Assembly (NCBI GenBank): GCA_963575745.1
Contig: CAUYUJ010000208.1
Coordinates: 62,001 to 116,855 of the forward strand
Length of the DNA stretch: 54,855 bases
Direction: 5' to 3'
From: Prorocentrum cordatum
Lineage: Eukaryota
Positions within the stretch are counted from its first letter, which is position 1. The number at the start of each line of letters is the position of its first letter. The notes under the pieces are model-generated. The model had not been told where the DNA came from. It saw nothing but the letters and a program-made list of their open reading frames with translations, and ran no database searches. Shown one piece after another: positions 2,846-44,079 of this stretch. The position numbers and the translations under genes are program-made.

Positions 2846-3849
2846 GCCACCGGGCCCGGACCACGCTGGTCTTCTTCTTGCAGGCCGTCGGCGCGCGGCC
2901 GCCCCGCACAGAGGTGTAGTCGCACTGCAAGTTAATGATAGGCAGCGACGCGGCCTCCTCCTCCGTCAGCTCAAAAACGCATCGCTGGGCCGCTCCCTCG
3001 TCGCCCGCCGCCGCGCGGAACGTCCCGGCTCTCGCGTCGTAGACGGGCCAGTCGCTCGCGGCCGGCGTCACGTAGTACTTCGCGTTGCCGGAGCGAGGCT
3101 GCGCCGCGGCGGCCCTGCAGCTGGCGCACGCGCCGCAGTGCACCACGCGGCCGGACTCGCTGGCGCCCGGGGGCGTCGACGGGCTTGCCCCAGTGCCAAA
3201 CGCCGCTGCACTGCGTGCACGCGACCCATTCCGCCCCGGCCACCGCCGCTGCCCACTCACCGGCGTCCACGCACGCAGACCGAGGTGCCAGGCGCCGGGG
3301 GGCGGCGCGCTCCATCGCCGACGGCGGCAGGTCGCGCCCGCCGGGGCAGGCCGCGGCGGCGGTCTCGACAGAGAGCCCGTGGCCGCCCACGGCCCAGTCG
3401 CGCTGCGGCGGCCGCAACGAGGGCAGAACGTCCAGGACCCGAGTGCCATCCAGCGCCGGCCTCGGCGAATGCCGTCGGGCGCCTCAGCATCCTCCGCGGG
3501 GCCTCCGCTCAGCTCCTCCACCGGCCTCGGCGGGCGTCCAGCGCCCACAGCGAAGCAGCGGTTCGATTCGGTCAGCCAAGTCGAGGCGGCGTCGGCGCGG
3601 CGCGCCCGACGCGGTGCCCGCGATCGCCATCGGCGCGGCCCCCTCGGCATTGCACTGGAGGCGCAACTCCCGCGCCCGGCGCGCGCTCAAGCCGAAGTCC
3701 CTCCTCAGATCGCTCGGGCCAGCTCCGTCCCGTACCGCTTCGGCGACGCGTGCGTGGTCAGCAGCGCTGAGCGTGGCCCTGGTCGCGCCGGCTCGCACCG
3801 CTTGGGCGACGCGCGCGGTCAGTCGGTCTGGGGTCAGTGGCGCGGCGCA
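2846..3849 (-). pseudogene. Frameshifted N-terminal part of the Rep-helicase gene (third HTH-like repeat plus CxxC zinc-finger-like motifs)
   Basis: Protein-like segments switch between frames: ATLSAADHARVAEAVRDGAGPSDLRRDFGLSARRARELR, WTFCPRCGR, WVACTQCSGVWH, HCGACASC, YYVTPAASDWPVYD...LPIINLQCDY. The last shift lies in a (CG)n run at ~2836-2847. Confidence 0.7.
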
Positions 3850-4240
3850 CTGTGGTGAGCGAACAGCCGAGGCACGAATGCTGTCTCGCGGGCACAGCAG
3901 CGAGGACGCGATGCGCGTGCGTCCGCGCGCCCCGCAGCGAGCGCGTGAGGTTGCGAGGGGCGCTTCGCCGCGAGGCGACGACACGCGAAACGCGAGAAAG
4001 ATGGAGCCGCGGTTTTGTCGGATGCGCCGCGGCTAGGTCGCCGCGGAGGGAGCGCACGCGAGCGTTCACCGCGGCACCGGCCAGCCTTGCCGCGCACAGG
4101 AACAGTCATGCGTGGCGGCTAGGCCGCCGCGGAGGGAGCGCGCGCGACCCGTCCGCGGCGCCGACCAGCCTTGCCGCTCGCAGGTTCCATAATTGTTTGC
4201 GGCAGGCGGGGCGCCCATCTTCCTGTGGGCGCGTTTCGCC
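3850..4240 (+). repeat. Split direct repeat A1 (391 bp)
   Basis: Appears identical to 13933-14323 (offset 10083). Confidence 0.95.
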
Positions 4241-6946: not shown

Positions 6947-8465
6947 ATGGAGGCGGCCGCTGCCTTGCGTTTCTTTCTCAAGAAGCATGCGATGGCGACA
7001 GGGGCTCCAGACCCGGACACATGGCTGAATGACATGGTCGCGATTCTCGACCGAGCGGAGGCACGTGTCCGCCGCCCGCGCGCGCGCTCCCGCTCCCGCC
7101 CGCGCGTCCGTGCGCGCGATCCGGCCGTCCCGCGCGGCCACCCGCGCGAGCGTCCCGTGCAACAGGTGTACACCCCGCAGGCACTCGTGTACGTCAACAC
7201 AAAGAAGATTGAGATCTCGCCTGGAAAGGCTCACGCCCTCGACCAGGCTATACAGGCAAGCGCGCGCCCAGAACCGCCGCGACGGTCGCCCTGCGACCGC
7301 CGCCGTTCAGGCGGCGAAGAAGGAGTTCGCACCTGCTGGGACCACCGCGCCTGCCGGGCCAGCGGCACCCGCAGCGGACCCGCTGGCGGAGCTCACCCGC
7401 ATCCTCACCAAGGATGACGCCCCGACGGTTCACGTCGACTTCCAGGCGCAGCTGAACGCCATCACCCTGGCCAACTTGCCCACCGCGGCGTGGCCCAGGC
7501 GCGCCCCCCCCCCTCCCAGCCTGTTTCGCCGGTCCGCGGCCGCCCGTCCGGCCGCGTCGCGTCAGGACCGTGCGCGTCGATTCCCTCGCATCCGAGGTCG
7601 ACCGCCTACAGAAGAAGAAAGGGCTTGCCGCCCCTTTTGTCAACGTCGACTTGCGCCTGTGGCTTCCCACGGGCGCGTCCGCCGTCGGCCGCCCACATGA
7701 CGACGATGCCACCCAGGCGGGCGCGGGCGGCGGGGCCAAGCCTCGCCTGATGAATTGGACCGAGTGGCACCTCGCCTTCGACCAGTACCTCGCTGTCCCG
7801 CCCGCCGACCGTACTCGCGGACCCTCCTCGGCGGCGCAGGTACGCTCTGGCCGCTGCCGCAACGAAGCAGCTCGACTTCGCCGCGGCACTCGCACACAAG
7901 CAGATCTGCCTCCTGGCATCTTGCCGCGCGCGCCCGCGCGCCCTCCGGCCAGCGGATTCCCCGCTCGCTTCGCAGGTAGCGGCCCACGCCCAGCTCAAGG
8001 GCCGCAAAGCCCACCTGGGCGTGTTCTACGACCAGGTCGCCCGCCGCTCCTGGGCCGAGAAGGCCGCCGCTGGCGTCACAGGTTTCCAGGCCCGCCACCC
8101 CGCTCCGCCGCGCGCGCCCGCGCCCCGCCCCCCCGCCGCGGACCTCGGCATCGCAGGTGAGTCAGGCGGCCCTCGCCCTCGACGAGGTGCTGCTCCGCCA
8201 GGCGGAGCGGGAATACGATTTTGACGAGAAGAGCCTCGGCAGCGCCCCCGCCGCCACGAAGCAGGAGGGAGCCGGTCCGGCCCGAGGCCCGGCGACGCCC
8301 AAGCGCAGCCAGGCCCACCGTGCGGGCCATGGCCTGACCGCCCAGCAGAGTCAGCAGAGTCAGCAGGGCAAGCGCAGGGCCGACACCGGGGCCAAGACCG
8401 GCTCCTGGAAGAGCTGGAACAACAAGAGCAACGGCGGGGGCGGCGGCAAATGGCAGCGCCGCTGA
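6947..8465 (+). CDS. Gag-like ORF1 of the YR retrotransposon, 7 exons (~369 aa spliced)
   Basis: GCCATGG start. Proposed introns 7061-7165, 7256-7310, 7499-7565, 7785-7839, 7916-7975 and 8090-8156 give one continuous frame with WTEWHLAFDQYALAAAATKQ...HKQICLLVAAHAQ...LGVFYDQVARRSW and a basic C-terminal tail. The Gag call rests on position and on resemblance to YR-element ORF1 motifs. Confidence 0.75.
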
Positions 8466-8698
8466 TCAGCGACAGCGCGCGCCTGACGGGCACAGCCGTC
8501 AGCACGGCGCGCGGAATTTTGGGCTTGCTGCTAATTAGAGCGTCCGACGCGGTAAAGGGTCCGAGGCGCACCAGGAATGCGCGGGCCCCGCCCTCCCTCC
8601 TGCGCCCTCCACGGCGCCCCCCTCGCCCTCCACGGCGCGCCCCTCGCCTTGGCGCCCCCCTCGCCCTCCGCGGCGCGTGCGTTCAGCTTGCTTTCGCC

Positions 8699-11338
8699 AT
8701 GAAGCGCTTTCGCGAGCACGCGAGCCCGGACGAGCCGGCTCCCAAACGGTCTGTGTCTGATGCTCGCAAGTTGTCTTTCGCCGAAGCGGCCGCCCTCGAA
8801 GGCGATGCCGGCTTCGAGCCGGGCTGCAAGCTTTCGCAGGACACTTTGGCGGCGCTTGAATGGATGGCATCGAGGCCACCCGAAGAGGCGCCCAGGTGCG
8901 CGCGCAAGGCGACCGCGCGCCACGACCGAGCGCAGGTAAGGGAGGAGCGTGAAGGGGCTGTTCTGCGGGTCCTCTCCATGGCACATCAGTTCAGGACGGC
9001 CGGATTCGTCGAAATCTGGGGTCGCGGCGCGGACCCGGGCGTCGCCAACGTAGCATCCGGCGTCAACGGCCCGCTCTTCGAACGCCTGGTCGCCGATGTG
9101 GACTTCCACGACCCGAAATGCGTTGACTTCTTCCGTGAGGTGCAACGCGCGAGGGGCGGCTCTGCTTCTCGCGCCCGACGGAGCGCGGCCGGCGAAGGGT
9201 GCACCGCTGATTGGGACACTCGAAAAATCCGGCACGGGGACGGAGATGGCGCATAAGCCGCTGATATCAGCGGAAGAGATCCTTCGAGGCCGGCGCGCGC
9301 GCGCGTCGGCAGGGGCCCGGCTTCTCCTCCCTGGCCCCCCGCCCCGCCGCGCGCCAGCCAATGCACGGGACAGAAAAGCATTGTTCAAAAGGACACGGCC
9401 AAGCCCGTGCGACGAAGCGCTGCACGAGGGCGCACTCGCCGACGCGAGCGCGGGGCGATTGACGACGCCCCGGCGACTGAGCCCCGACGACGTGCCCCCG
9501 GATGCCGCGGTAATCCCCCGCTTCGGCGTGGAGCAGGGGACGCGGCCGGACGGCACCGCTAAGGTACCCCGACGGCCGCCCGCGCCGCTCATTCGCGGAC
9601 CGCCGCCCGCGCGCCAGGTGCGCGCCGTAGACGACTGCAGCGCGGCCCACCTCAACAAGGGTACGGAGCCGCAGGAACGGATGAAGCATGACACTGTCGA
9701 CGCGCTGTTTGACGCGTGTCGGAAATTGGCGCGACGCGTTTCTCGGGCCCCGACGCCGCGTGCGCTCTGCCCTGTTCAGGCACCCCTGGGGCCCTTGGAG
9801 CTCTTCAAGGCCGATATTGATTCCGCCTTCCGCAGAATCCCCTTGCGCCCGGAGCACCGACGCTTCGCTTGGGTCATCTATTGCTTCGCCGGCGTCACCT
9901 GGGGAGCCCAGCACGTTGCCCTCCCGTTCGGAGCAGGCCCGCGCGGGCCATCCCGCCCCACCCGCCGCCCCGCCGCGCGTCGCGGCGCAGTCAGCAGCGT
10001 ACACAACTGGGAGAGAATCGGCGCGGCCCTAGTGGCCATCTGCAGGCGCCTCTTGCGGATCCCAATCCTGAGGTACGTCGACGATCTGTTCGGCGTCGAG
10101 CGCTCCGGGGAGGCCCGTCTCGCTCTGTCCCCTCCCCCCCTTCCGTCGCACCCGGTCGACCCTCTCCGCGCTCGCGCAAAGGCCCAGCACGCCCTCTCGT
10201 GCGTGGTCCGGGTGATCAGGTGCATCCTGGGCCCTACGTCGGTGGCCGATAAGAAAACTGAGTCGGGCCCGTCGCTCGTGATTCTCGGACTAGCCATCTC
10301 GGTGCACCGCGCGCGACGCGTTCGCGAATGGGGGGCTAGGGCACTGTGCGTGCGGTGTCGCAGACCTCACGCAAAGGGCTGATTGCGCGCCCGTCCAAGG
10401 ACAAGGTCGACAAATGGACGAACCGAATCAGGACGGCGCTTGACGACGGTTCGATGACCGCAGGCGCGCGCGTGATCGCGCGCCGCGCGCGCCGGGGGCG
10501 ACACCTTTCTTTGCACAGGTGGGGCCGCCAAGCTCGCGGGCGCGTTGTCGTGGGCGGCGTCGTGGCAATTCCGCAAACTAGGCCGTGCGATGCTGCGGCC
10601 CTTGTTCGCCCACGCACACTCGGGGCGTCCGTTTCTACCGCGCCCCGCCCTGCGCAGCCTGGCGTGGTGGTTGGAAGTGTTGCAGAGAAGCGTTGCAGAG
10701 ACAAGGGAATGGGAGCCCGCGGACACCCGCCCGCCGGTCCTTGCCTTCGCTGACGCCCGGGGCGAGCCCCCACGAGCGGCCGCCGTCCTCTGGATCGACG
10801 GACGTTGGGAATACACAGACCAGATGCCGCCGGCCTGGCTAACGAGGCCCCGATCGCGCGCCGGCGACCGATCGATGCAATTCGGCCTGCGCGCAGGCAA
10901 TTCCAGCAGCGGAGCGACGATCAGATCGCCGGACTCGAGATGCTCGCTTCGGCCTTGGCGATCTCCACCTGGCAGAAGGAGCTCCGGGGCCGCAAGGTTC
11001 GCCTCTTTAGCGACAACACGATCGCCGAATGGTCGTTCCGAAAGGGATCAGCGAAGTGCTGCGACCACGGGGCCATCGTCCACCACTTCTGGTCGGTGAT
11101 CGGGCTGCTCCAGATCAACCTCCGGATCGACCGTGTCCCTTCCGGCGGGCCCGCGCGTTATCTCTGTCAGGTCGGGTCCCACTCCCGCGGCGCGCCAGTT
11201 GATAACATTTCTGACCTGCCCAGTCGGGAGGATTATGATCTCATGACACGCATTGGGGCCACCTGGAGGCGCCCGTGGCTGCGGCCAGAATTCTGGGACC
11301 TCCAGCTGCCATGCCAGCTCGCGGCCCGTCCCGTCTGA
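8699..11338 (+). CDS. Reverse transcriptase-RNase H, 12 exons (~671 aa spliced)
   Basis: RT motifs KADIDSAF, LPFGA and RYVDD; RNase H motifs AFADARG, IAGLE, FSDN and DNISDLPSR. Introns 8888-8935, 9140-9197, 9289-9357, 9564-9617, 9729-9779, 9937-9990, 10113-10181, 10302-10363, 10464-10518, 10847-10896 and 11145-11198 each match an insertion relative to the intronless homologue at 26211-27948/38024-39503. Confidence 0.92.
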
Positions 11339-11910: not shown

Positions 11911-12105
11911 CCGCGCCGTCACCGGCCAGCGCCGGTCGCTCCCGCTCGACCCCGCGCAAGGCTCGCATCAGAGAAAGAGACGCGAGCGCCGCCCGGGAAG
12001 GCGCGTCAGTAACGCGGCACGAACGCTCTCACACGCGAAGGGGGCTATCGAGAGGCGCGCAGGGCGCGGGGCGACCTCTCTCAACGCGCCCCTCGGCGCG
12101 CCAGA

Positions 12106-13677
12106 ATGAAGCTCGCCGACCAGATCGCCGTTGCGACCCCGTGGGCGTCACCCACGGTCGTTGAGGAAGTCGCCAAGTTTCTGGTTTCTTGCGATGTGTT
12201 CGCGATCTCATCTGTGCGGGCGGTTGGCGCACCGGAAAACTGGAGCGGCTACGTGAATCTGTCGCCCGACGCGCAGCGCGCGATCGCGCTCTTCGCGCGA
12301 GCAAAGCCGCCGCCGGGCCCGCCACCTGCGGCGGCGTTCGTGAGTGACGAGGTGCCTGCGGCGCCCGTGTGCGCTCAGCCGTGTGTCTCCTCCGCCGCTG
12401 GCTCCTCCTCTTCCTCCTCGTCCTCCTCCTCCTCCTCGTCCTCCTCGCCCCCCCCGCGGGCGGGTGGTAGGAGTCCAGCCGCGCAGGCACCCGCACGCCC
12501 GCAACAGGAGGGCGTACTCTCGCAGCGGCTGCAATTAGCGCGGGCGACGGCCGCGCTGAAAGCGTCGCCCCTGGGCTCGAGAAGAGGAGGCCCGCGCGCC
12601 GCAATTCGACGCCTGGCCGTTGCGCCGAGCGACCCCGAATTCAGGAAGCGCGCCTTATTCGGGGCCCGGTGCGCCGCCGTCCTCAACGGTGCCCCGCGCT
12701 CCATCGGCACGTGGACAGCCGGCCTGAGGTGCTGGTTCCGTTTCGCCAAATCGCAGCTCGGAAAAGGGGACAGCCCCCTCCCGCCAACTGCGGACGAGCT
12801 ATGTCTTTGGGCTTTGTGCTTCTCGAACCCCGGCACTTTTGCCAATTACAAAGCCCAGGTCGACAAGGCCTGCACGCTGCTGGGCCTCGACCGCTCAGCG
12901 TTCAGCAGCCCCGCCGTTTCGCGCGCAAAGGCCGCGATCAAGCACCGTGCGCCCCAGCCTGACCCGCGACCTCCCCCTGTCACGCGGAAGGCGTTAGTCG
13001 CGATGTTGCCGCACGTGCCTGACCCTCAGGTGCGAGCGCTGTTCGTAGTCGCCTTCGCACTGGCCTTGAGGCTTCCCTCGGAGGCGCTGTTGATCAGCAT
13101 AGGCGACCCAGCACGGGCGGCCAACTTCCGGTTCACGCAGGAGGAACTGGACCGCCCAGTGCCGACCATCGTGCTTTTCAACACGAGCGAGGCGGTCGTA
13201 CTCCACCTCTCGAGGCGAAAGCATAAGCCCAGGCCTAGCGAAGTCAGGCGCTCGTGCTGGTGCAGCATCTGCACCGCGACCTGCCCAGTGCACGCCCCGC
13301 GCGCCCTACTGGGCGACCTCGCGCCGGGTGCGTCTCCTTTTGCCCACCTGGCAAAGCCGACCAGAGCCGGGCGCGTGCTCCCCGTGCCAGCAATTACCCG
13401 CAACCTGCGCAGGTCGGCGCAAGCGGCGGGCCTCCCCAATGCCGCCCGCATCACCTCGAAGTGCCTGCGGCGCGGCCACACGGAGACTCTCCGCCAAAGC
13501 GGGGGGAGCCTCGCCACCATCTTGAGAGCCGGCAACTGGAGGTCCGGCGCATTTAAGGCCTACCTGGACCAGCCTGCCCTGGAAGACGCGGCGACGGGCG
13601 AGGGCATGGCCCTCTCCGCCAGCGCGGGCCCTGAGGCCGCGGGCCATGACCCCGCAGGCGCTGCATCTCAGCCGTAA
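12106..13677 (+). CDS. Tyrosine recombinase of the retrotransposon (523 aa, no obvious intron)
   Basis: ALRLPSE (Arg I), SRRK, CPVH, SKCLRRG (HxxR position carries K), AGNW and FKAY (catalytic Tyr at 13561-13563). Confidence 0.92.
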   Translation: MKLADQIAVATPWASPTVVEEVAKFLVSCDVFAISSVRAVGAPENWSGYVNLSPDAQRAIALFARAKPPPGPPPAAAFVSDEVPAAPVCAQPCVSSAAGSSSSSSSSSSSSSSSPPPRAGGRSPAAQAPARPQQEGVLSQRLQLARATAALKASPLGSRRGGPRAAIRRLAVAPSDPEFRKRALFGARCAAVLNGAPRSIGTWTAGLRCWFRFAKSQLGKGDSPLPPTADELCLWALCFSNPGTFANYKAQVDKACTLLGLDRSAFSSPAVSRAKAAIKHRAPQPDPRPPPVTRKALVAMLPHVPDPQVRALFVVAFALALRLPSEALLISIGDPARAANFRFTQEELDRPVPTIVLFNTSEAVVLHLSRRKHKPRPSEVRRSCWCSICTATCPVHAPRALLGDLAPGASPFAHLAKPTRAGRVLPVPAITRNLRRSAQAAGLPNAARITSKCLRRGHTETLRQSGGSLATILRAGNWRSGAFKAYLDQPALEDAATGEGMALSASAGPEAAGHDPAGAASQP

Positions 13678-13781
13678 TGCGCGCTCGTCGCGCCCTTCAT
13701 CCCGCACGCGGTAAGAAACGTCGCGACGTTGGCAGTGGGGGCGCGCGCACACGACGGCTGACGCCGGCCTGCTGTTGCATT

Positions 13782-13937
13782 GGGTTGTAGCAGCCAGGCG
13801 TCGCCGTCGAGGCGCGCGCCGCCACCGCCTTGTGCTCGGCGGGGGCGGCGCCGCCCGACGCGCCGCCGCACCCATCGCAGGATGGTTGCTGCGACCGCGT
13901 GGCGGACGCCGCAGAGCGCCGCGCCCGCAGCGCTGTG
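13782..13937 (+). repeat. Split direct repeat B1 (156 bp)
   Basis: GGGTTGTAGCAGCC...GCAGCGCTGTG, repeated at 14340-14495 (offset 558). Confidence 0.95.
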
Positions 13938-14323
13938 GTGAGCGAACAGCCGAGGCACGAATGCTGTCTCGCGGGCACAGCAGCGAGGACGCGATGCGCG
14001 TGCGTCCGCGCGCCCCGCAGCGAGCGCGTGAGGTTGCGAGGGGCGCTTCGCCGCGAGGCGACGACACGCGAAACGCGAGAAAGATGGAGCCGCGGTTTTG
14101 TCGGATGCGCCGCGGCTAGGTCGCCGCGGAGGGAGCGCACGCGAGCGTTCACCGCGGCACCGGCCAGCCTTGCCGCGCACAGGAACAGTCATGCGTGGCG
14201 GCTAGGCCGCCGCGGAGGGAGCGCGCGCGACCCGTCCGCGGCGCCGACCAGCCTTGCCGCTCGCAGGTTCCATAATTGTTTGCGGCAGGCGGGGCGCCCA
14301 TCTTCCTGTGGGCGCGTTTCGCC
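13933..14323 (+). repeat. Split direct repeat A2 (391 bp)
   Basis: Copy of 3850-4240; overlaps B1 by the 5 nt CTGTG. Confidence 0.95.
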
Positions 14324-14339
14324 CCACCCACATCCGCCC

Positions 14340-14495
14340 GGGTTGTAGCAGCCAGGCGTCGCCGTCGAGGCGCGCGCCGCCACCGCCTTGTGCTCGGCGG
14401 GGGCGGCGCCGCCCGACGCGCCGCCGCACCCATCGCAGGATGGTTGCTGCGACCGCGTGGCGGACGCCGCAGAGCGCCGCGCCCGCAGCGCTGTG
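14340..14495 (+). repeat. Split direct repeat B2 (156 bp), right end of the element
   Basis: Copy of B1, separated from A2 by a 16-nt spacer. Confidence 0.95.
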
Positions 14496-18850: not shown

Positions 18851-19997
18851 TGTCAGTGAATATATTGTTGGGGTTTGGTTATGCTGGGTTCTTTTGGGCG
18901 TGGGCCCCTCTGGAACCCCCAAAGCCCCTCATGAACCCCCTGGGTTTCGCGTGGCCACCCCCCAGGATCCACAGGGACCCTCTGTGATTCCCCAGGTTTC
19001 CTCATGGCTTCCCAGAGAACGGTTACTTACGGGCCCCTACTGTCCAGTCTGTTTTCTGATGCCCTCTACGTCCCCATACGGTCCCCAGTTGCTCCCTGCT
19101 GCCCCTCGCGGACCCCTACGGTCCCCTCTGTCTTATGCGGCCCCGTCGGTCCCCTACGGCCTCCCGCTGTCCCCTGCGGTCCACTGCGGGCCCCTACGGA
19201 CCCCGACGGTTCCTTGCGGTCCCCTGCGGCCCCCTGCGGTCCCCTACGGTGCCCTATTGTCGCTTTGGTCGTCTGCGGTCCCCTACGGCCCCCTACGGTC
19301 CCCATCTGTCCCTTACTGTTCCCCGCGACCATCGTCATCGTCGCCGCCGCCGTCGCCAGCCCGTCTCTTTATACGTATGCCCTCGCCCTCATGCTTCTCG
19401 CCCCCTCACCCCCCCCGTTCAGCCCCCCCCCCCCCGCGACCTCGACTCCGCCGCTCCCTTCACCCCTCCGCCTGGTGTGCAAGTATGCATCCGCTTTCCC
19501 GCATCTTGCCCCCTCGCCGTGCCATCCTCAACCTTGCCCTCGACAGACCAGGTTGCTCTGCCGTGTGTGTACAATTACTATCTTGCCCCCGCGTCCCCTG
19601 CCCTGCCACATCCTGGTGAATTGATACGCCTTGCCCTCGTCATTCCGTTCACAGCAAGAGGGGGTGCGCATATGTGCAGCGCGCGGTTGTGCCTGTACGG
19701 TTGGGCCCAGCGTCGGCGAACATTCATACACGATCTGCGCCCGTTGCATGTACTTGCATTGTGCATTGCATTGTGAGACTGACATTGCATGGCGGTGCAT
19801 TCATGTGATGTGGTATGTGTTGCGTAGGCTTGCATTGCCCACGCAATCAGTGCATGTCCTGCGTTGCCTGAAGTGCATTGCGATGCGCGTCAGTGCAGGG
19901 ATGCATCATGATCCGCATTGCTTGTTTGGCTCAGCAGCTAAACCTGCACGTCTTCGCCGCGCACGGGGCTGTCCGCATACCGAACACAGGACAGACG

Positions 19998-24980: not shown

Positions 24981-25033
<53 letters not shown>

Positions 25034-25784: not shown

Positions 25785-26210
25785 TGAGTGAACAATCGCC
25801 AGATATGTAGGTAGGACGTTAATGCTTGCAGCCAGTCCGTCTCATGGTGGGCAGAGGTTCTGGGGTTGCTCGCGCGCGAGGCCGCACGCACTTGTTGTGA
25901 TGAGTACGGCGCATAGCTCAGAACCGCACCGCTGACCCCGAACACCCCATCCAGAACCGATGCTCGCGAGATAGTCTTTGGCCACTCCTTGCTGGGGCCA
26001 CTTTGGGCGCTGCCACAGCGTGCCCCCCCAGGTAGGTGGAGTGAGGAGGAACATCACGTACAGAAAGGGTAGAAGGTGTGTGATGCAAGCGTTGGCCCAG
26101 AGGCCACTTTGGCCCAGAGGACTGGCAATTTAACCATCGCGTGCATTTTGCTCGCGACGGGATCTCGTGCCGCCAAGGGAGTGGAGCCTCGCTGCGCGAT
26201 GTGGCGCGTG

Positions 26211-27948
26211 CTGGTTCGCGGGCTGCGATGCCCATGTGCGCACAATCGCAGGGTCGATCAACGGCCCTCTTCTCGTCGAACTGCTCGACGAAATCGGTTA
26301 CGAGGACGCGGCCTGCGTGGAAGTCTTTCGGCGCGGCGCGCCTCTCGTGGGCCCTCTCCCGTGCACGGGGAACGGGCGTCCGGAATCTTTCCCTGTACCG
26401 CTCAGCCTGCCGGACTTGGCCGCGGGCGCGGAGCGAGGCAACGCCGCGCTGCTCGGCACGCTCAAGGAGTCTAGCGACTCCGCCGTGATTCTCACCAAAA
26501 CTATCGCCGAAGCGGAGCTCGGCCGAATGAGCCATCCCGCGCCGCTCAGCGCGGTCGAGCTCGACGGTGCGGTTTTGTCGCCGCGGTTCGGCGTCCGGCA
26601 GTCGAGAGAGGACGGGTCCGAGAAGCTGCGGCTCGTAGATGATATGTCGCGCTCTCGTATCAACGCGGCGTCGCAGCCGACGGAGCGTCTCGGCCATGAA
26701 GCCATCGACGCTCTGTTTGGCACTTGCAAGGCATTTGTGACGCGCGTGGGCGAAGCGCCCGGGCTCTGGAAGGCGGACATAGACGCCGCGTTCCGGCGCG
26801 TGCCGCTGTTGCCGGAACATCGCGCCCTCGCATGGGTCGCGTTCCTCGTGGGCACATGCGTCTACGTGGCTCAGCACTTCGCCGCCCCATTCGGAGCGAC
26901 TTCCTCCGTTCACAGCTGGGAGCGCATCGGCGCGATGCTGTCAGCGCTGGGCCGCAGGCTCATTTTCGTCCCCGTCCTCAGATATGTGGACGACTTCTTC
27001 TGCCCCGAACGTAAGAAAGGGCTGCGCGACGCAATGCGACAGTTCGCCGAACTGGTAAGAATCATTCTGGGCCCGAGCGCTGTGGCCGACGGTAAGCTGC
27101 TGTTCGGCAATCCGCTCGGGGTCCTGGGCTTGTCTGTGGCGATTGACGAGCGTGGCCTCGTGTGCTGGCCGCTGCCGGAGAAGCGCGCCCGGTGGCGCGC
27201 CGAGATCGCTGCTGCTCTTCAAGAGGGCGCGCTCGAGCGCGGGCGCGCGTCCAAGTTGGCAGGCCGCTTCTGTTGGGCTGCCTCCCACACCTTCGGGCGG
27301 TTCGGGCGCGCGCTGCTCCCGCCGTTGTTTGAGCACGCAAGGGCGCGCCATCCTAGTATCCCGGCGCACCTGCGAGTCTGCCTGCAATGGTGGCACGAAG
27401 CGCTCGCCAGAAATTTCACCACGACGCGGGAGTGGCAGGCGCCAGACACCAGGTCTGTCCAATTGCTCTCCGACGCGCGGGGGAATCCAGCTAGAGTGGC
27501 CGCGGTTCTTTTCATTGACGGGCGCATTGTCTTCACCGATGTCGCCCCGCCTGAGCCTCTGCTTCGGCTCTTCAGGGAAAGGCGCGACAATCAAATCGGC
27601 GGTCTGGAGGTGCTCAGCATCGCGCTGGGCCTGGCCACCTTTGAGCCGCTCCTGTCGGGCCGATGCGTGAACATCTTTTCGGATAATTCAGGCAGCGAGT
27701 GGGCCGTCCGGTCCGGTGCGGCGAAGCAGTTTGACCACAATTGCCTGGTCCACTCAATCTGGCGCATGGCGCTGGATGCGAATTGCAATCTGCACGTTCA
27801 GCGTGTGGCGTCGGTGGACAACATCGCCGACCTGCCGTCGCGCGAGTCATATTCCCTGCTGTATCGCTTGGGGGCGGAGTGGATTCCTCCGGTGCTGGAC
27901 GATGCCTGGTTCGATCCGAGCGCGTGGCTTCCTCATCGCCGGCCATGA
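26211..27948 (+). CDS. Intronless RT-RNase H, lacking its N-terminus
   Basis: KADIDAAF, APFGA, RYVDD, LLSDARG, IGGLE, FSDN and DNIADLPSR lie in one uninterrupted frame. The ORF-track start at 26167 lies in foreign sequence fused at 26211-26215. Confidence 0.92.
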
Positions 27949-28134
27949 CCGGCTCGGGCGCTGGGCGTGCGTGCAATGGATCTGGCCTTCACTCATCGGT
28001 CAGGGTGCGCCCGCCAGGTCGGGCAGGGGTTGGCGTCCTCCCTCGCGCACGTCGCGGTCGCGCTTCGCCTGTGGGCGCGCGAGGGCATCTCTGGTTTGTC
28101 GGCGCACCTGGAGAATGTCATCGGTGTTCGCGCG

Positions 28135-29760
28135 ATGGCGCTGGCTGGATTGCTCGCTCAGCTTCGCGCGGTTTGCCCTGAGGCACGCCCTCTTCCTGTG
28201 TTCGCCGCTGCCGAGCTGCTTGCCGATAACGGCGCCGACGCCGTGAGCGATTTGGTTGGCGTCACCCTGGCAGACTTCAGGGGCGCCGCGGCATTATCTT
28301 GCGACGCCCGCGAGGTGGTCCGCGCGGCTATCGCGGCAGCCCAGCGCGGCGGCGCGCCAGCCGCACTGGGCAGGGGCAGCGCGGGCGCTTCTCCTGCGCC
28401 CGCCCCGTCGCCCGGGATTGCCCCCAGGTCTGCTTGCGCGTTCCGCGTTCGTCGCGGGCCCCCCCCTTGTCGGCCGTCGCAGGACCGACATCGCGACGCG
28501 GTCGCCCTCGAGCGTATCCGTCTCGTCATCCTCCACGGTGCGCGCGCGAATTTGCGGCATGTCGCTCGCAGCGCTAAACGCGGGCGCCAGGACAGCGGCA
28601 GGGCGCATGCAGCTCCCCCGGAGGACCCCGTGTCCGCGGTCCGGTGGGCGCTCTCAGTCGCTGGGCGCGAGGGTCGGCGTGACATGCGCGGGCCGCGGGC
28701 CGAAGCTGCTCGGGCCAGAGCCCTCATCACCTCCTCGGCGGCCGGTAAAGCGTGGGCGCGCAGGGCCCGGGTGAGCGCTCTCCTGGGCGCATGCCCGCGC
28801 TCATTGCCCGCGCTCAGCAGCGGGTTCGAGTGCTGGGTTACATTCGCAAGGGGCGTCTTAAAGCGACGGGGGAAGGAACTGCCGCCCACCCTGGAGGGGC
28901 TGCTTCTGTGGTCCACGACCTTCAGGTGCGCCGGGACCTTCAGCAATTATGTGACTTACGTGAAGAAGGCGTGCCTCGTGGCATGCCGGCGCGCGCCCGC
29001 CTCTCATCTTCCGGCAACGCGCGCGTCCGCCCGCGGCGGCAGTTGGCGCGCAAGGCCCGTGGAAGTCTTCAGGCACCCGGCGGTTCGCGCCGCTAAGAAC
29101 GCCATCGAGAAGCGTTCGGGCTGGCAGGCGAAGGCGCGCATGGCCCTTCAGGGCCGCGACGTCGCCCGTCTGGTGTCGCACCTGCGCGTCAGTGACGAGG
29201 GTCGCCGTTTCGCCATGTTGTGCCTGGCGGCCTACGCATTCCTCCTTCGGCTACCCTCGGAGGCCCTGCCCGCGGTGCGGGTTGAAGATGGCGCGGCCGC
29301 GGCTTGCGTGGCCTCCGCGTTCGTCGTCGGCGATCAAAAGATCGAGCTGCACCTCTCCAGGAGAAAGAACCGCGAGAGCCGCTCGGTGATGGCACGGCAG
29401 TGCTGGTGCGACGAGTGCGCGGTCACCTGTCCCGTACACGTTCTTGGGGCCTGGCTAGTTGGCGAGCCAGCTCATCAGCCCATCTGGGCTGCGTGGTCCC
29501 CAGGCGCGGCACGTGCTCGGCTGCGCCGCGCGCTGGGCGAAATGGGGCGCCACGACGCGGAATCATTCGGCACTCACGCGTTCAGGCGCGGGCACGCGCA
29601 GGACATCGCTGCCAGGGGCGGACCGGTCACCGACCTTCTTCGCGCGGGCGGCTGGCATCAGCCCGCGTGGATGAAATACCTTAACGTTTCCCGGCTCGAG
29701 CGGCAGTCGGTCGCGGAAGCCCATTTGGCAGAGTCGTCCAGCGACGATGGCGATGGCTGA
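28135..29760 (+). CDS. Tyrosine recombinase with three probable introns (~483 aa spliced)
   Basis: LLRLPSE, SRRK, CPVH, THAFRRG, AGGW and MKY. Intron 28989-29054 (GC-AG) removes a 22-aa insertion relative to the YR of element 1. Introns 28428-28482 and 28538-28590 (GT-AG, 55+53 nt) expose a Ser-rich linker like that of element 1. Confidence 0.85.
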   Translation: MALAGLLAQLRAVCPEARPLPVFAAAELLADNGADAVSDLVGVTLADFRGAAALSCDAREVVRAAIAAAQRGGAPAALGRGSAGASPAPAPSPGIAPRSACAFRVRRGPPPCRPSQDRHRDAVALERIRLVILHGARANLRHVARSAKRGRQDSGRAHAAPPEDPVSAVRWALSVAGREGRRDMRGPRAEAARARALITSSAAGKAWARRARVSALLGACPRSLPALSSGFECWVTFARGVLKRRGKELPPTLEGLLLWSTTFRCAGTFSNYVTYVKKACLVACRRAPASHLPATRASARGGSWRARPVEVFRHPAVRAAKNAIEKRSGWQAKARMALQGRDVARLVSHLRVSDEGRRFAMLCLAAYAFLLRLPSEALPAVRVEDGAAAACVASAFVVGDQKIELHLSRRKNRESRSVMARQCWCDECAVTCPVHVLGAWLVGEPAHQPIWAAWSPGAARARLRRALGEMGRHDAESFGTHAFRRGHAQDIAARGGPVTDLLRAGGWHQPAWMKYLNVSRLERQSVAEAHLAESSSDDGDG

Positions 29761-29875
29761 GCACCCCGCGCAGTCTGGTGGTCGTGTCTGCACGGCACAC
29801 ACGTGGGCGCACCCCCGGCACGCGGGGGCAGTGGGTGGCAGCGCCGGGCGTGGCCCGCGGGAGCGCCGTTGCAGT

Positions 29876-29961
29876 GGGTGGTGCTCCCCCACGGGCCCGA
29901 CCGGCGTCTGCCCGCTTGGCCTCGGAGAGGCCGCGCGCTGCGGGGCAGATGGGTCGGGTCC
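29876..29961 (+). repeat. Element 2 repeat B1 (86 bp)
   Basis: Repeated at 30439-30524. Confidence 0.9.
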
Positions 29962-30438
29962 GCACCCTCCGCTCCTGGGGGAGGCTTCCTCCTCCCCCCC
30001 CCCCAGGGCCGTGCGAGGCGAGTGCAAGCGCCAGGATTTGTGGGGTCGGAATAACGAAGTTATTGCTTGGCACAAATCCGCCCGCGCTGTGAACGACCCC
30101 GCGGCTGGCCGCGGGGGCGCCCTCGCTCGGCTGGTCGGCCGCGCGCTGGTCGACCCTCTTCCGCCTCCCGCTCGCGTCGTGTGGTGCAGTGCCGTGCCGT
30201 GCTTCCTCCGCCTGGCACTGGGGCGGGATATAAATACCGTGCCGTGTGTCGGGTTTCGGCCCTCCGCCCTCTGGGGGCTTCGCTCGGCCCATAGTGGCTT
30301 CCTTGCGGCCCATAGTGGCTTCGTTGCGGCCCATAGCGGCCTGCTGCGTTCACGTGCCCAATGGGGCCCTCTCTTCTGGTCCATAGTGACCACGAGCTGT
30401 CGTTGGCCCGCCCTACCCGCCCTGGGGGTGTGGGGGGG

Positions 30439-30524
30439 GGGTGGTGCTCCCCCACGGGCCCGACCGGCGTCTGCCCGCTTGGCCTCGGAGAGGCCGCGCG
30501 CTGCGGGGCAGATGGGTCGGGTCC
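30439..30524 (+). repeat. Element 2 repeat B2 (86 bp), probable right end
   Basis: Copy of 29876-29961. Confidence 0.9.
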
Positions 30525-37961: not shown

Positions 37962-37994
<33 letters not shown>

Positions 37995-38023
37995 TATATA
38001 TGTGTATACTTTCTCCCGTTCTC

Positions 38024-39503
38024 ACTCCTTCGAGGACAAAGAGGCCTTTGAAAAGGCCGTGGTGGTGCCCGGCGATGTTTTGGCGGCGATCGATTGGATT
38101 GCTGCGCGCTCGGAGCGGCAGGTGTGCCGTGAGCGGCGAGCGACTCTCGAGCGAATTCGGGCCAGGGACGCCGAGCTACGCGCCTCTGGAGCGACGGCGG
38201 CCTGGTTCGCGGGCTGCGATGCCCATGTGCGCACAATCGCAGGGTCGATCAACGGCCCTCTTCTCGTCGAACTGCTCGACGAAATCGGTTACGAGGACGC
38301 GGCCTGCGTGGAAGTCTTTCGGCGCGGCGCGCCTCTCGTGGGCCCTCTCCCGTGCACGGGGAACGGGCGTCCGGAATCTTTCCCTGTACCGCTCAGCCTG
38401 CCGGACTTGGCCGCGGGCGCGGAGCGAGGCAACGCCGCGCTGCTCGGCACGCTCAAGGAGTCTAGCGACTCCGCCGTGATTCTCACCAAAACTATCGCCG
38501 AAGCGGAGCTCGGCCGAATGAGCCATCCCGCGCCGCTCAGCGCGGTCGAGCTCGACGGTGCGGTTTTGTCGCCGCGGTTCGGCGTCCGGCAGTCGAGAGA
38601 GGACGGGTCCGAGAAGCTGCGGCTCGTAGATGATATGTCGCGCTCTCGTATCAACGCGGCGTCGCAGCCGACGGAGCGTCTCGGCCATGAAGCCATCGAC
38701 GCTCTGTTTGGCACTTGCAAGGCATTTGTGACGCGCGTGGGCGAAGCGCCCGGGCTCTGGAAGGCGGACATAGACGCCGCGTTCCGGCGCGTGCCGCTGT
38801 TGCCGGAACATCGCGCCCTCGCATGGGTCGCGTTCCTCGTGGGCACATGCGTCTACGTGGCTCAGCACTTCGCCGCCCCATTCGGAGCGACTTCCTCCGT
38901 TCACAGCTGGGAGCGCATCGGCGCGATGCTGTCAGCGCTGGGCCGCAGGCTCATTTTCGTCCCCGTCCTCAGATATGTGGACGACTTCTTCTGCCCCGAA
39001 CGTAAGAAAGGGCTGCGCGACGCAATGCGACAGTTCGCCGAACTGGTAAGAATCATTCTGGGCCCGAGCGCTGTGGCCGACGGTAAGCTGCTGTTCGGCA
39101 ATCCGCTCGGGGTCCTGGGCTTGTCTGTGGCGATTGACGAGCGTGGCCTCGTGTGCTGGCCGCTGCCGGAGAAGCGCGCCCGGTGGCGCGCCGAGATCGC
39201 TGCTGCTCTTCAAGAGGGCGCGCTCGAGCGCGGGCGCGCGTCCAAGTTGGCAGGCCGCTTCTGTTGGGCTGCCTCCCACACCTTCGGGCGGTTCGGGCGC
39301 GCGCTGCTCCCGCCGTTGTTTGAGCACGCAAGGGCGCGCCATCCTAGTATCCCGGCGCACCTGCGAGTCTGCCTGCAATGGTGGCACGAAGCGCTCGCCA
39401 GAAATTTCACCACGACGCGGGAGTGGCAGGCGCCAGACACCAGGTCTGTCCAATTGCTCTCCGACGCGCGGGGGAATCCAGCTAGAGTGGCCGCGGTTCT
39501 TTT
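38024..39503 (+). pseudogene. Truncated duplicate of the element-2 RT, ending at the start of RNase H
   Basis: 38202-39503 appears identical to 26211-27512 (offset 11991). 38024-38201 supplies extra N-terminal RT sequence (FEKAVVVPGDVLAAIDWIAARSERQVCRER) that aligns with element 1. It is preceded by (TA)n at ~37963-38000. Confidence 0.9.
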
Positions 39504-39805
39504 GGGTCGGAATAACGAAGTTATTGCTTGGCACAAATCCGCCCGCGCTGTGAACGAGGGCCAGTCTGCGACCGCTCGCATTGGGATCTCGTGCCGCCAA
39601 GGGAGTGGAGCCTCGCTGCGCGATGTGGCGCGTGCTGGTGGCACGCGCGGAGCGGCGCGGCCGCGCCGCCTCGGCGAGGGCCTCGGTGCGCGATTTTCGC
39701 GCGGTGGCCTCGCTGCGCGAGCGGCAAGGCGCCGGGGCTCTCAGCGCGGCGTTGGAGTGGTTGTCGAGAAGGGCGCATCGAGCTGCGCGCGGTTGCCAGC
39801 TTGGT

Positions 39806-40954
39806 ATGCTCACTGCAGCGCGCGCAATGGCTTGCGCCCTGCTGGCGGGCGCAGCCACCGCGCAGCCTGTTTTCCCCGATGGGGCAGGTGCGATTATTGG
39901 CGGCGTGGCAGCCCAGCAGCGCGCGACGCCCGCGCTGGTCGCCGACGACCGCGCCACGGTGCAACGCCTCGGGCGGGCCGCCGCTGCTCGTCTCGAGCAT
40001 GACCTCGCGGCGTCGATATTGCGGGAAGAATTGAACGAGGACGGGCGGAGGAGCGCGCGCTGGTCTCGTGGCCGGCCGCGCGACGCAGGCGGCGTACACA
40101 ATGGCCCACGTCCGAATTTTGCAGCGAGTCTTCGCTGGAGGGTGCCCCCGCGACGTTACCAAGTGCACCGCTCCCTTGGGTTTTCGGCACCTGTTTTCGC
40201 GCGTCGCGGACGACGCTGCCAGTGGCTGGCGTGACCTGCTGAACGCTGCCGCCGGTCACCCTTGCAGTCCAGGTGCCCGCGCGAATGGGATCGAACCGCG
40301 GCGCTCGGCAGCGTCCGTTGAGCACGGTGGCCTGCTCCGCTCGGCGACTTGCAGTCGGGGGCGTGCTCTCCGCCGTCGGATTACGATGGCGCGACTGCAT
40401 ATTGAGCAGGTGCGCCCCCTAGCGCGCTCGCGCGCGGCCTGCGCAGGATGGTGCGGCGACGTTGACGCGCGCGACATGTCGCCTGCAGAGATCGAGGCGC
40501 GCGCCGCTGGATGGGAGGCGCGGCTGTTTGCGTTGCCCCGTGGCAGTTTTGAGCAGGCATTTTCGTGGAAGTGCAAGGCATCGTGGCCGTGCGCAGCCCC
40601 GTGTAAGCTGGATTTCGGATCATGTCCAGTGGCTGGGCGGCGCGGTAGCTCATCGGCGCGCGGCCGCGCGGGGTCGTGTATTTCGCAGGCGTGGAGGAGT
40701 CAAGGCAGCGGCGCGTGCGCGGCGCCCGCGGAATACAACGGCATGTGCAGGCGTTCGCGGCGGCGCGTGGCGCGCCGGCCGCGGTGGGCCCGCAGTTTCG
40801 CGCGCAGACGCGCCGCTGATTTTTCGAACCAGACTGCGTCGCAGAAGGCGTCGTGGGCGGCGATGTGCGACGTCGCGTGGCTTGCCTTCGCCCTCGGGGC
40901 CAGTCGCTCGCGAATCGCGATTAGGATGCGTTGCTTCGCAGGCCGTGCGCGTGA
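39806..40954 (+). CDS. CPW-WPC domain protein (two domains, hydrophobic N-terminus), multi-intron
   Basis: Removing short GA/GT/GC-AG introns gives CPRDVTKCPREW...GACSPPSDYDGWCGDVDARDMSPAEIE...FSWKCKASWPC and CKLDFGSCPVAW...GACAAPAEYNGMC...ADFSNQTASQKASWAAMCDVAWPCA*. This matches the alveolate CPW-WPC repeat pattern. Confidence 0.82.
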
Positions 40955-43219
40955 GGACATTTTCCGCGTGGCTCGCCGCGACGAGCGCTGCCTCGCGGAG
41001 CTGGCGGAGGCGCGGGGCGGGGCGGGGCTGAACGCGCGAGCAGCGCTTACGAGGGACACGATGAATGACGCGCGGACTTAGGCAGGTTGATTAACGATTT
41101 GTCGTTGGCACAATACATAAAGCACATAGTGATATATCCGAAAAGCGAAACACATGTTTAGTACATTCGCCCGCTCTGGTCACGGCCCTGCGGCGGGCTT
41201 GCCAACGCGCGGGCCTTCTCGCGCGGCTGGTCGGCCGCGCGCTGTCCGACTTGCTTCTTCGCTAATCGTCGCTGCTAACCCATGCGCAAGGCGTTGGAAT
41301 CAATGGGGAACGGACGGCATGCATCAACTAGCGCTTCGGCCCGGGCACCGAACAAACACGATGATGCTGTGCTCGATGGCGACTGGGGTTCTTTTCGTTG
41401 GTCCATGGAACGCGGCCCCGTCTGTTTGTCTGAGCGGGGGCCGGGAGGGCATGAGTCGATCGCCTAGCGCAGCTGGCCTCACCCGCGACATCTGCATAGG
41501 GAAATGCACGCGGTTAACTATTCAGGCGCGCGCAGGCGGCGCGTGGCCGCGACCGCAGCAGGGATTGGACACGCCCACATAACGCCCGAAGCACGGGGCG
41601 CCGATCGCAGCCGACCGCGACGCAAGTGCAGCGCGCCCGGAATCTGACGACATCGCCATGCCTTGCCGCCGCGGGGTGGATGTGCCGACCGACAGAGTAC
41701 CCTGACGGTAGTTGCCTTCAGATTTCGGATATTGTTGTGGCATCTTCAAATTCTGAAGTCGTGCCTGGCTCAAGATCTGCACCTTTCACCAGGGCGGGCC
41801 GTTTCTCTCCCTTCCGCCACGGGTCTGAAGTCGCGCCGAACTGTTGCAGGGTCAGCGAGCTGAAGCTGAGCCCCCTCGGCGGCCTGGCGGGGTCGCCCCT
41901 GCCCCCCCTTCCAGCCCCCTTCCTTGTATATGCGAAACACGCGCGCCAAAAAAAACTATTGGAAACCAATACTAATACATTTATATAAAAAAAGAAGCAG
42001 CCCGCGCGAGCCAGCGGGCCCAATCCTATGTGCAAAACCAAAATGAAACCATTCCGACGACAACAAAAAACTAACGCGGCATCTCCCGCCGAAGTTTTGC
42101 CCCGAACGCGTCTTCAACAAAATCAATCGCGCGTCGCGCGCGCCGCGCCCCATTCCCGCTTCGCGAGTGCCACTGTCGGAACGCTTTGCTTCCGCGCGGT
42201 GGCTCTTGTTTTCCACGGGCCAGCTGCGCAGCGCTCGACTTTCCGACGCGCCGGGTCCCGCAGGGAGGAAGCGCGCTATATGAATTGCATGGATTTCTCG
42301 CCAGACGCCCGCGCGACGCTGCGCTAATGCGCGCAGCTTTCGCGGCGTGCCAAGCGGGCTGCGAGGGCCGCCGCGCCTTTGAAGTGCGGCGCGGACGCTC
42401 GACGTGAAAACCCGCGCCCGCCCGCGCCAGCCGCCTGGGCGCCAGCCGCCCGGGCGCCGGCGCACCTCCATGCCCCTTCGGAGGTGCGCCGTCACACCGC
42501 CGACTTGCAACAGTTCGTTGCGCGCCTGACACATCAGCGCCGTGGCCCCACTCGCCCATTGCCCGCTGGCCTTCGCGCCGCCTCCTTGGCGCATGCCGCC
42601 CCACCTGTGGGCCCACTGGTGGGGCGTCCTCCTCCCAGTTCGCCCCCTGCCACCCGCTGGCCTTCGCGCCGCCCCCCTGGCGCATGCCGCCCCACCTGTG
42701 GGCCCGCTGGCGGGGCGTCCTCCCCCCTGTTCGCCGCCTCCCTCTCGCTCGCCCCCCCTCGCTCCGCGCCGCCATGGCGCTGCCGGCCCCGCTGACGCCG
42801 CCAGCTGCCGACGCCCGCGCCGGCCCCGGGCCCAGTCCTGCCGCTCGCCGCTGGCGCCGTGGCCCCGTGGCTCCCAACGGGCCCGCGATGGGGTTGAGCA
42901 GCCTCGGATTGAACCCGTCACGCACTCGTCACCCGAGACTTGTTTTTCCGCGCTGGGCCCCGCCGCCCCGGGCCCAGTTGTGCAGCGGCCGCCGCGCGCC
43001 GAGCGGCGGGCCCAGCCGACCCCCCCCCCCCCCCCTCTTGCATGGCGGCGCAATTCGCTCCGCCCATGCGTTTCATCGCCAGCGCAGTCGCCTAATGCCC
43101 AGCCGCCGACGCAACAGTTTTGTGCATGTATATACATGTATGATTATAAATATACACACACGTATACCTATACGACCATCCTTCGGGCGATGAGGAGGTT
43201 CGGGGGCGGGGGGGCAGTG

Positions 43220-44027: not shown

Positions 44028-44059
<32 letters not shown>

Positions 44060-44079
44060 TCATCAACAGCATCGACATC

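Follow-up and report, generated by a model that had tools for sequence, protein, structure and literature searches.

The DNA investigated here is a stretch of 54,855 nt from Prorocentrum cordatum (assembly GCA_963575745.1, contig CAUYUJ010000208.1, positions 62,001 to 116,855), in the following referred to as the window, which is GC-rich (guanine-plus-cytosine (GC) content of about 50–82% in 1-kb steps). It harbors two retroelements, designated element 1 and element 2, each encoding a reverse transcriptase (RT) fused to ribonuclease H (RNase H) and a separate tyrosine recombinase (YR). Both are interpreted, with some reserve, as distant lineages of a Ngaro/PAT-like family of the DIRS order that carries spliceosomal-type introns of 42–74 nt, the contrast in intron content between them being explained by independent gain, with losses occurring elsewhere in the family.

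Two Lineages with Private Intron Positions

In the original prediction, the two elements were regarded as sisters showing a reciprocal intron distribution. However, the encoded proteins share 31% (YR) and 36–44% (RT) identity, and in a YR tree comprising 78 rows element 2 groups with the metagenome locus L001 (Shimodaira–Hasegawa-like approximate likelihood-ratio test (SH-aLRT) value of 99), while element 1 forms a long branch of unsure placement. Judged from these protein comparisons, they are not sisters but two distant lineages of one large family, for which a profile search yielded 882 representative clusters at E<=1e-30.

When identity of an intron position was defined as same codon and same phase, the 12 positions in elements 1 and 2 had no exact match among the introns of 78 other loci. 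Lineage-specific gain is therefore favored over reciprocal purging. Moreover, neither gene contains introns in the closest relatives of element 2, namely P0103 (84% identity, RT) as well as L001 and P0002–P0005 (YR). Private gain in a background with few introns represents the simpler account of the contrast and the best reading of the data.

An Interrupted Reverse Transcriptase Gene in Element 1

Element 1 (3847–14495) was found by tblastn using the proteins of element 2, with matches to RT-RNase H at approximately 9017–11296 (36–41% identity) and to YR at 12664–13602 (31%). It is a full-length copy of 10.6 kb with ends of the A1-...-B1A2B2 type (Table 1). Its B1 and B2 repeats are 100% identical over 156 nt, and its terminal repeats show 1 difference in 550 bases.

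For RT-RNase H, a family hidden Markov model (HMM) was built from 15 uninterrupted homologues. The blocks of element 1 matching this HMM switch between two frames, and 11 short extra segments divide or interrupt them. These segments measure 42–69 nt, and GT..AG or GC..AG ends are assignable to each, with a GC donor in 6 or 7 of the 11 depending on the choice of boundaries; three introns (the third, fifth and eleventh in Table 1) are ambiguous in detail. Without the 11 segments, the gene is open from 8225 to the stop codon at 11336 and gives one HMM match of 762 bits, compared to 339 and 203 bits and 7–10 stops for the best two frames of the unspliced sequence. Since four of the 11 segments are not multiples of three, the RT requires their removal, and as read from the DNA element 1 would make RT only with the segments removed. 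The YR core is a single-frame match to HMM positions 70–410, the extras being two in-frame stretches of 33 and 27 nt. This pattern, an intron-rich RT-RNase H gene beside an apparently intronless YR gene, agrees with what had been predicted for element 1.

ORF (open reading frame) pieces of element 1 that read through introns were recovered as letter-for-letter copies from Logan, ENA and JGI assemblies, and the interruptions are therefore not errors of the window assembly. A look-up of intronless variants of these pieces returned exact copies only. Furthermore, the distance between the RNase H end and the YR core (11339–12012) exceeds that of element 2 by approximately 600 nt (1223 versus 624 nt between HMM ends).

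Structure of Element 2

Element 2 (26211–30524) is a 5'-truncated, split-direct-repeat YR retroelement, and its 3' end is located at approximately 30524, not at 29760. Two long ORFs in the same frame, 26134–27948 (604 aa) and 27949–29760 (603 aa), are separated by a single TGA. RT-RNase H represents a single continuous match to positions 78–657 of the family HMM (917 bits, all inserts <9 aa), which bears out the predicted absence of introns from this gene. A protein from another assembly, P0102 (782 aa), is 100% identical to it and reaches approximately 200 aa farther upstream. Homology of element 2 starts at 26211, and the upstream continuations differ in contigs of the sequencing runs X5, X8 and X7. 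At the 5' junction, a foreign repeat piece of 53 bases is joined through 5 bases common to both sequences. Owing to the 5' truncation, this copy lacks the repeat A1. At the right end, B1 and B2 (86 nt each) are 100% identical, with a spacing of 563 nt as opposed to 558 nt in element 1.

Contigs of four sequencing runs (X5, X8, X19 and X7) were compared with element 2. The RT-YR junction is bridged by contigs of X5 (27602–28299) and X7 (27884–28378), and all three segments proposed as introns of the YR gene are traversed by X5 record 15 (28270–29157) and X7 record 21 (28361–29204). The adjacency of RT and YR in element 2 is thus genuine, and the assembly chimera envisaged in the original prediction is contradicted. 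Among the contigs of these runs, no junction across any of the three YR segments was listed, which has no bearing on splicing.

In the P. cordatum gene model P0135 (99% identical), YR residue 24 follows directly on the RNase H end, with omission of 27904–28017, a GC..AG segment of 114 nt containing the RT stop and the YR ATG, the omission of which would fuse RT-RNase H and YR. A conserved intron fusing both genes was rejected, as the frames differ in 27 of 38 loci possessing both genes and at least one stop lies between them in 37 of the 38. The omission in P0135 is probably a prediction artefact.

Proposed Introns in the YR Gene of Element 2

The three introns proposed for the YR gene of element 2 have exactly the ends originally given for them (Table 1), and the YR ORF is open through all three segments. 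The open frame says little because the DNA is so GC-rich: a shuffled 66-nt insert of this composition is stop-free 81% of the time.

Segment 3 (28989–29054) has comparative support. In the YR family alignment A1 (20 rows including the window YR and its own protein P0001), it appears as a block of 22 aa in the latter two rows only, the block being absent from 18 of 18 other rows, and the family length is exactly regained once it is removed. It is unchanged in all seven near-identical cluster members covering it. In the structural model of YR, residues 108–122, located inside the segment, show predicted local distance difference test (pLDDT) values <50 and are flanked by two confident helices. 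Moreover, in a subfamily of 84% identity (P0132) a frame shift occurs at the 5' edge of the segment, which in that sequence cannot be a coding loop unless the copy is dead. Segment 3 is therefore considered a likely intron.

Segments 1 and 2 lie upstream of detectable homology, in an unconserved linker for which no homologous sequence was detected, L001 included; in this nearest relative, none of the frames contains anything homologous upstream of YR residue 212. The reading frame is kept only if both or neither are spliced. Among 1067 GY..AG pairs in element 2, segments 1, 2 and 3 ranked 1, 110 and 190 by a splice-site weight matrix trained on relatives. The matrix was rejected as evidence for not being discriminating, with the homology-validated introns of element 1 ranking 2 to 828 of 1464, and the ranks of the element 2 candidates are weak evidence because it fails on validated introns. 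Inside segment 1, P0133, for which 10 contigs are listed, and one contig of X8 show a C8-to-C7 length variant. All three variant sites found between 28365 and 28551 in the four runs correspond to third codon positions if the frame is read without interruption, which weakly favors read-through. Segments 1 and 2 are accordingly kept as doubtful candidates, and of the three introns once termed probable only the third retains that description.

Table 1. Features of elements 1 and 2 and of associated sequences in the window (a slash marks an exon–intron boundary).
Feature	Coordinates	Strand	Remarks
Element 1, left split direct repeat A1	3847..4240	+	394 nt; 99.7% identical to 13930-14323
Element 1, RT-RNase H gene	8225..11338	+	12 exons, 11 short introns
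Element 1, introns 1-6 (best boundaries)	8888-8935, 9140-9197, 9305-9373 (or 9289-9357), 9564-9617, 9738-9779 (boundaries uncertain), 9937-9990	+	
Element 1, introns 7-11 (best boundaries)	10113-10181, 10302-10363, 10464-10518, 10847-10896, 11145-11198 (or 11157-11198)	+	
Element 1, YR ORF	12013..13677	+	no intron detected in conserved core
Element 1, right end	13782..14495	+	B1 13782-13937, A2 13930-14323, B2 14340-14495
Piece of another repeat at 5' break of element 2	26158..26210	+	aligns with 39585-39641 and 51632-51688
Element 2, RT-RNase H ORF	26211..27948	+	5'-truncated, intronless; stop TGA 27946-27948
Element 2, YR ORF	27949..29760	+	first ATG 27976; stop 29758-29760
Element 2, candidate intron 1	28428..28482	+	55 nt, G/GT..CAG/G; unproven
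Element 2, candidate intron 2	28538..28590	+	53 nt, G/GT..CAG/G; unproven
Element 2, probable intron 3	28989..29054	+	66 nt, G/GC..AAG/G, phase 2; in frame, stop-free
Element 2, right end	29876..30524	+	B1 29876-29961, A2 29962-30438, B2 30439-30524
Element 2b, rearranged fragment of the same family	38014..39557	+	38202-39503 = 26211-27512 (100%); 39504-39557 = 30043-30096 (100%)

Protein Identities and Element Class

The RT ORF of element 2 matched the Pfam model RVT_1 weakly (E=0.006; 16.7 bits at a curated cut-off of 29.6 bits). Over the family, E<0.01 was obtained for this model in eight of 15 proteins, none of which reached the curated cut-off, and Pfam RNase H models gave no match in the RT ORF of element 2 or in the family proteins. 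The AlphaFold model of the RT (pLDDT 82.9) matched in Foldseek the RTs of cauliflower mosaic virus (CaMV), human immunodeficiency virus 1 (HIV-1), human endogenous retrovirus K (HERV-K) and Ty3, with E-values from 2e-12 (CaMV) to 1.6e-11. The alignment of this model with HIV-1 p66 (556 residues) comprises 584 columns, and the span takes in RNase H. In the RT alignment, V285, D286 and D287 are invariant and Y284 is nearly so.

No Pfam match was obtained for the YR ORF of element 2, and Phage_integrase was found in none of the 20 family rows. A YR profile searched against the PDB matched Cre residues 286–333 (E=0.0012). Furthermore, a model of the 359 conserved C-terminal residues (pLDDT 86.4) matched Cre over its full length (Foldseek 7e-8, template modeling (TM) score 0.59–0.66). 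Invariant residues of the YR family alignment are R434, R472/K473, R546/R547, H549, W569 and Y577, corresponding to the catalytic Arg, Lys, His-x-x-Arg, Trp and Tyr.

The features of the DIRS order are thus present: an RT, a downstream RNase H in the same ORF, YR residues instead of a DDE integrase, and ends of the A1-internal-B1-A2-B2 arrangement. Pfam searches of the element 1 ORFs between 4240 and 8225, in which a Gag-like ORF1 was looked for, returned nothing, and no methyltransferase was detected with Pfam. The class tentatively leans towards Ngaro because of the repeat type and the absent methyltransferase match.

The nearest proteins bearing a name are gene models of P. cordatum, with three short YR relatives termed 'unnamed protein product, partial [Prorocentrum cordatum]' and one of them 99% identical, which is in line with the dinoflagellate context assumed in the original prediction. 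The metagenome relatives show approximately 53% GC compared with approximately 70% here, and based on this difference their hosts probably differ from the host of the window. No relative was found in viral contigs scanned with the YR.

Introns Across the Wider Family

In order to evaluate interruptions across the family, metagenome contigs were scanned with the YR alignment; 526 stretches matched, relatives being encoded in 199 of them, and the analysis used the best 80 loci. These 80 loci and both elements were subjected to a three-frame HMM scan and then to a placement search, which together yielded 179 interruptions of 36–100 nt, 161 of which were scorable. A GY..AG placement within 1 bit of the best unconstrained placement was available for 103 of the 161, compared with 7–11 for each of six decoy dinucleotide pairs. 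The 135 resolved introns are 42–74 nt long (median 57) and have GT (108) or GC (27) donors. Their consensus consists of AG/GT or AG/GC, a T-rich tract and CAG/G, with G at exon position -1 in 93%, C at intron position -3 in 70%, and G as the first exon base after AG in 87%. In their sequences, the interruptions behave as spliceosomal introns, and splicing is inferred from this behavior.

In the 80 loci and two elements, 69 distinct intron positions were counted, 23 in YR and 46 in RT. Among 141 introns compared with each other, 20 similar pairs were found; 18 of these concern the same site in near-identical loci, and the other two represent two boundary choices for one intron and a GC-rich match of 15 nt. 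Same-site introns of close relatives are 92–100% identical, while introns of different sites are never alike. An origin from introners was rejected, since the 141 introns form no sequence families across sites. Likewise, tandem duplication of exon sequence was rejected as their origin, with a median local score of 8 against the introns' own flanks and 8 against unrelated flanks. Introns of different lineages are repeatedly located 1, 6 or 10 nt apart instead of at identical sites.

A YR clade of 21 rows has five intron positions in common, and intron-free members are nested within it; inheritance and loss therefore both occur. The intron-rich loci L022 and L079 possess B-type repeats downstream of YR, and the likewise intron-rich L077 and L078 show end overlaps of 141 nt, as collapsed split repeats would give. 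In L077, positions 1–141 equal 7592–7732, and in L078, positions 1–141 equal 9249–9389, giving apparent circles of 7591 and 9248 nt, with which circular DNA forms of the element are also compatible. Moreover, of 124 distinct introns, 58 have a length divisible by three (p=0.0013), and 42 of these 58 are stop-free versus 29 expected; detection bias contributes to this excess.

Origin of the Intron Contrast

The distribution of introns between the two genes was analyzed for 22 non-redundant elements covering both genes, after exclusion of the near-duplicates L004, L009, L010, L021, L033, L051 and L075 and of the element 2b fragment. Intron heterogeneity among them reached a chi2 of 28.9 (df 17, p=0.036), expected counts being small. 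The split between RT and YR is 11:0 in element 1 (p=0.08) and 0:1 in element 2 (p=0.56). The gene-by-gene contrast is real as a description; it is statistically weak and demands no gene-by-gene mechanism.

Such a mechanism was part of the original prediction. It would start from an intron-bearing ancestor whose whole genes were purged via cDNA of spliced monocistronic mRNA, YR in element 1 and RT-RNase H in element 2, and is considered unlikely. Among the 22 elements, L003, L022, L043 and L069 have 3–5 resolved RT introns and none in YR, the reverse split is seen in L061 and L066 with 1 (RT) versus 4 (YR), and these cases speak for purging together with the heterogeneity of p=0.036 and the intron-free members nested in an intron-bearing clade. 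Separate expression would also be plausible, since RT and YR are encoded in different frames with several stops between them in most relatives. However, no ancestral intron set can be named because none of the 12 positions is common to any other locus, the closest relatives of element 2 lack introns in both genes, and the tests on single elements are not significant. Of the earlier statement that introns are gained or purged, it holds that the family keeps and loses introns, whereas a reciprocal purge is disfavored by 12 of 12 positions being private. Regarding the two causes proposed for it, lineage-specific gain is favored, and recombination with cDNA is required by nothing observed here. 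Placing intron positions on the YR tree, part of a check suggested at the outset, revealed common positions and loss in the clade of 21 rows, while no position of elements 1 and 2 was common to another locus.

For element 2, a rather unlikely reading, though less so than purging, is that the YR segments remain unspliced, being in-frame insertions or linker kept as coding loops, with segment 3 perhaps a former intron whose original acceptor was lost. The ORF is open through the three segments, segment 3 is a multiple of three retained in all seven covering copies, the acceptor at the family-homologous site would be AA and not AG, the three variant sites occupy third codon positions of the continuous frame, and across the family three-multiple, stop-free introns are in excess, with the detection bias mentioned above. 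Conversely, segment 3 is missing from all other aligned family members, is predicted to be disordered and has GC..AG/G ends typical of the host, its frame is broken in the subfamily of 84% identity, and open frames are uninformative at this GC content. Gain of the introns after insertion, in immobile (host-gene-like or domesticated) copies and without inheritance through transposition, appears improbable. The high rate of intron gain reported for dinoflagellates (PMC11453091, in the part available) and the finding of element 1 as exact copies only would fit it. Nevertheless, 1 difference per 550 bases in the element 1 repeats leaves little time for 11 gains, segment 3 is retained in all copies of the element 2 family seen despite different upstream continuations, a deep clade of elements with terminal repeats has intron positions in common, and the introns lack the mutual family resemblance of introners. 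An artefact, either a chimeric assembly of unrelated RT and YR or random indel decay of dead copies, is largely refuted and very improbable: although 26211–27512 recurs at 38202–39503 with 100% identity, both window copies are broken, and the listed X5 and X8 contigs do not show the 26157/26158 junction, independent contigs of X5 and X7 span the RT-YR junction, the same ORFs are known from other assemblies (P0102 and P0036), GY..AG ends fit far more interruptions than any decoy pair, and the RT of element 1 becomes one intact ORF after removal of the segments.

Several observations weigh against independent gain of spliced introns as favored here. Two introns of element 1 are located 1 nt from an intron of another lineage, and the private status of positions may reflect sparse sampling, the metagenome relatives probably belonging to other hosts. 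No GY..AG ends were assignable to 26 of the 161 interruptions, and GA donors, tried as an explanation, accounted for none of these 26. As for segment 3, its length is a multiple of three and it is stop-free, allowing read-through as a loop of 22 aa, its splice-site score does not stand out (rank 190 of 1067), and it is located 10 nt upstream of a site that eight other loci use, with no AG at exactly the homologous place; the frame change in P0132 may moreover be due to a single dead copy, 2 contigs being listed for its cluster. The pieces of element 1 found elsewhere are exact and without variants, so that repeat identity is the sole sign of its recent mobility. Finally, splicing is deduced from the DNA sequence.

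Proposed Mechanism

Under the favored reading of independent gain, the host spliceosome would remove the segments from the mRNA. The template for copying may be unspliced RNA, or the element may sometimes be moved as DNA by its recombinase, and new copies would in this way inherit the introns. Losses would occur when spliced or partly spliced RNA is reverse-transcribed. A hypothetical but attractive source of new introns would be reverse splicing into the genomic RNA of the element, which its own RT would fix. Introns that are multiples of three and stop-free might also permit translation of unspliced RNA, keeping in mind that the detection method favors such introns. That the family routinely retrotransposes from unspliced RNA and keeps acquiring tiny introns at fresh positions, possibly by reverse splicing of host introns, is put forward tentatively.

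Comparison with Known Systems and Significance

Since their replication passes through RNA, retrotransposons would be expected to lack introns. Ogre long terminal repeat (LTR) retrotransposons of legumes possess a spliced intron in their coding region, in this case one intron in an LTR/integrase element of a plant host. The family described here belongs to the DIRS order and has up to 11 introns in one gene, many of them at lineage-specific positions. No prior report of intron-rich DIRS-order retroelements was found in full-text literature searches and a Chlamydomonas preprint, subscription papers on DIRS and Ngaro elements being outside this scope and earlier reports of single introns being possible.

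The following comparisons refer to those parts of the cited articles that were available. SymbioDIRS elements of Symbiodinium are dinoflagellate DIRS-like elements (de Mendoza et al. 2018, PMC5890265) and resemble the present ones in their A-coding-B-A-B repeats, in a Pol ORF (RT and RNase H) with a separate YR ORF, and in an RT too divergent for Pfam seed models. They differ in that their gene models are annotated as 'intronless' and some include a DNA methyltransferase (DNMT), while up to 11 tiny introns and no Pfam methyltransferase match were found here. Ngaro elements of Cafeteria burkhardae (Hackl et al. 2021, PMC8547959) likewise have the structure A1-[ORFs]-B1A2B2 with RT/RNase H and YR ORFs. 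These elements are GC-rich and 6–7 kb long, as compared to 10.6 kb for element 1, and reside in a different host; in the available text no introns are reported for them, though automatic gene prediction gave fragmented calls according to the authors.

In PMC8557442, intron retention is called 'highly unusual among retroelements' and ascribed to Penelope-like elements, in which spliceosomal introns survive retrotransposition (Arkhipova et al. 2003, cited in PMC8557442), as suggested here. However, Penelope-like elements belong to an unrelated RT clade, encode a GIY-YIG endonuclease and no YR, and usually have one intron in the 5' untranslated region (UTR), whereas many introns in coding genes are observed here. 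Dinoflagellate introners (Roy et al. 2023, cited in PMC11453091 and PMC10666404) likewise provide many new introns in the same host group; in contrast to introners, which are sequence families with terminal repeats, the introns described here resemble one another only where close relatives have them at the same site. The genome of P. cordatum has a GC content of 59.7%, GT, GC and GA donors at 24.7, 51.4 and 23.8%, AGG acceptors at 79.7% and introns averaging 4709 bp (PMC10666404, Table 2). The GC donors in element 1 and the G following the acceptor agree with this usage, and the element introns are approximately a hundredfold shorter than the P. cordatum mean.

The family offers many independent replicates, datable by terminal-repeat divergence, for intron gain and RT-mediated loss, as well as a direct test of intron creation by reverse splicing into retroelement RNA. 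If ongoing gain from unspliced RNA were true, both classical RT-based models, gain and loss, could be studied in a natural system that is replicated and datable. Furthermore, caution is advised in annotation, since intronless retroelement models or prokaryote-style ORF callers will fragment or miss such elements; among the proteins retrieved from public collections in this analysis are some with read-through introns as well as frame-switched pieces.

Further Features of the Window

Element 2 and the fragment 2b, located approximately 12 kb apart, have stretches of 1302 nt and 54 nt in common that are 100% identical and may reflect gene conversion, a duplication of very recent date or an effect of the assembly. 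In X19, a run with relatives of 90–95% similarity, one contig departs at 29734, the end of the YR ORF, into the reverse complement of approximately 38062–38091. The latter sequence is found upstream of RT, and the contig suggests an inverted arrangement in some relative. TA microsatellites occur in the window, e.g., at 37964–37995 immediately upstream of fragment 2b. An unbroken run of 52 A (24981–25032), approximately 1.1 kb upstream of element 2, is possibly the tail of a retroposed sequence.

On the minus strand, an open frame of 977 aa (1–2931) runs off the window and matches Helitron_like_N and the AAA_30/AAA_19 helicase models (best E=6.8e-12); it probably represents an uninterrupted Helitron Rep/helicase. 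Large direct duplications of 96–97% identity pair 39576–42773 with 51623–54855 and 41981–45526 with 47375–50942. The duplicated region (39576–45526 versus 47375–54855) includes an ORF with a CPW_WPC domain match (40035–41078, E=9.7e-8). Among many short tandem arrays in the window, one at 19094–19314 consists of a 10-nt unit repeated approximately 21 times (68% matches).

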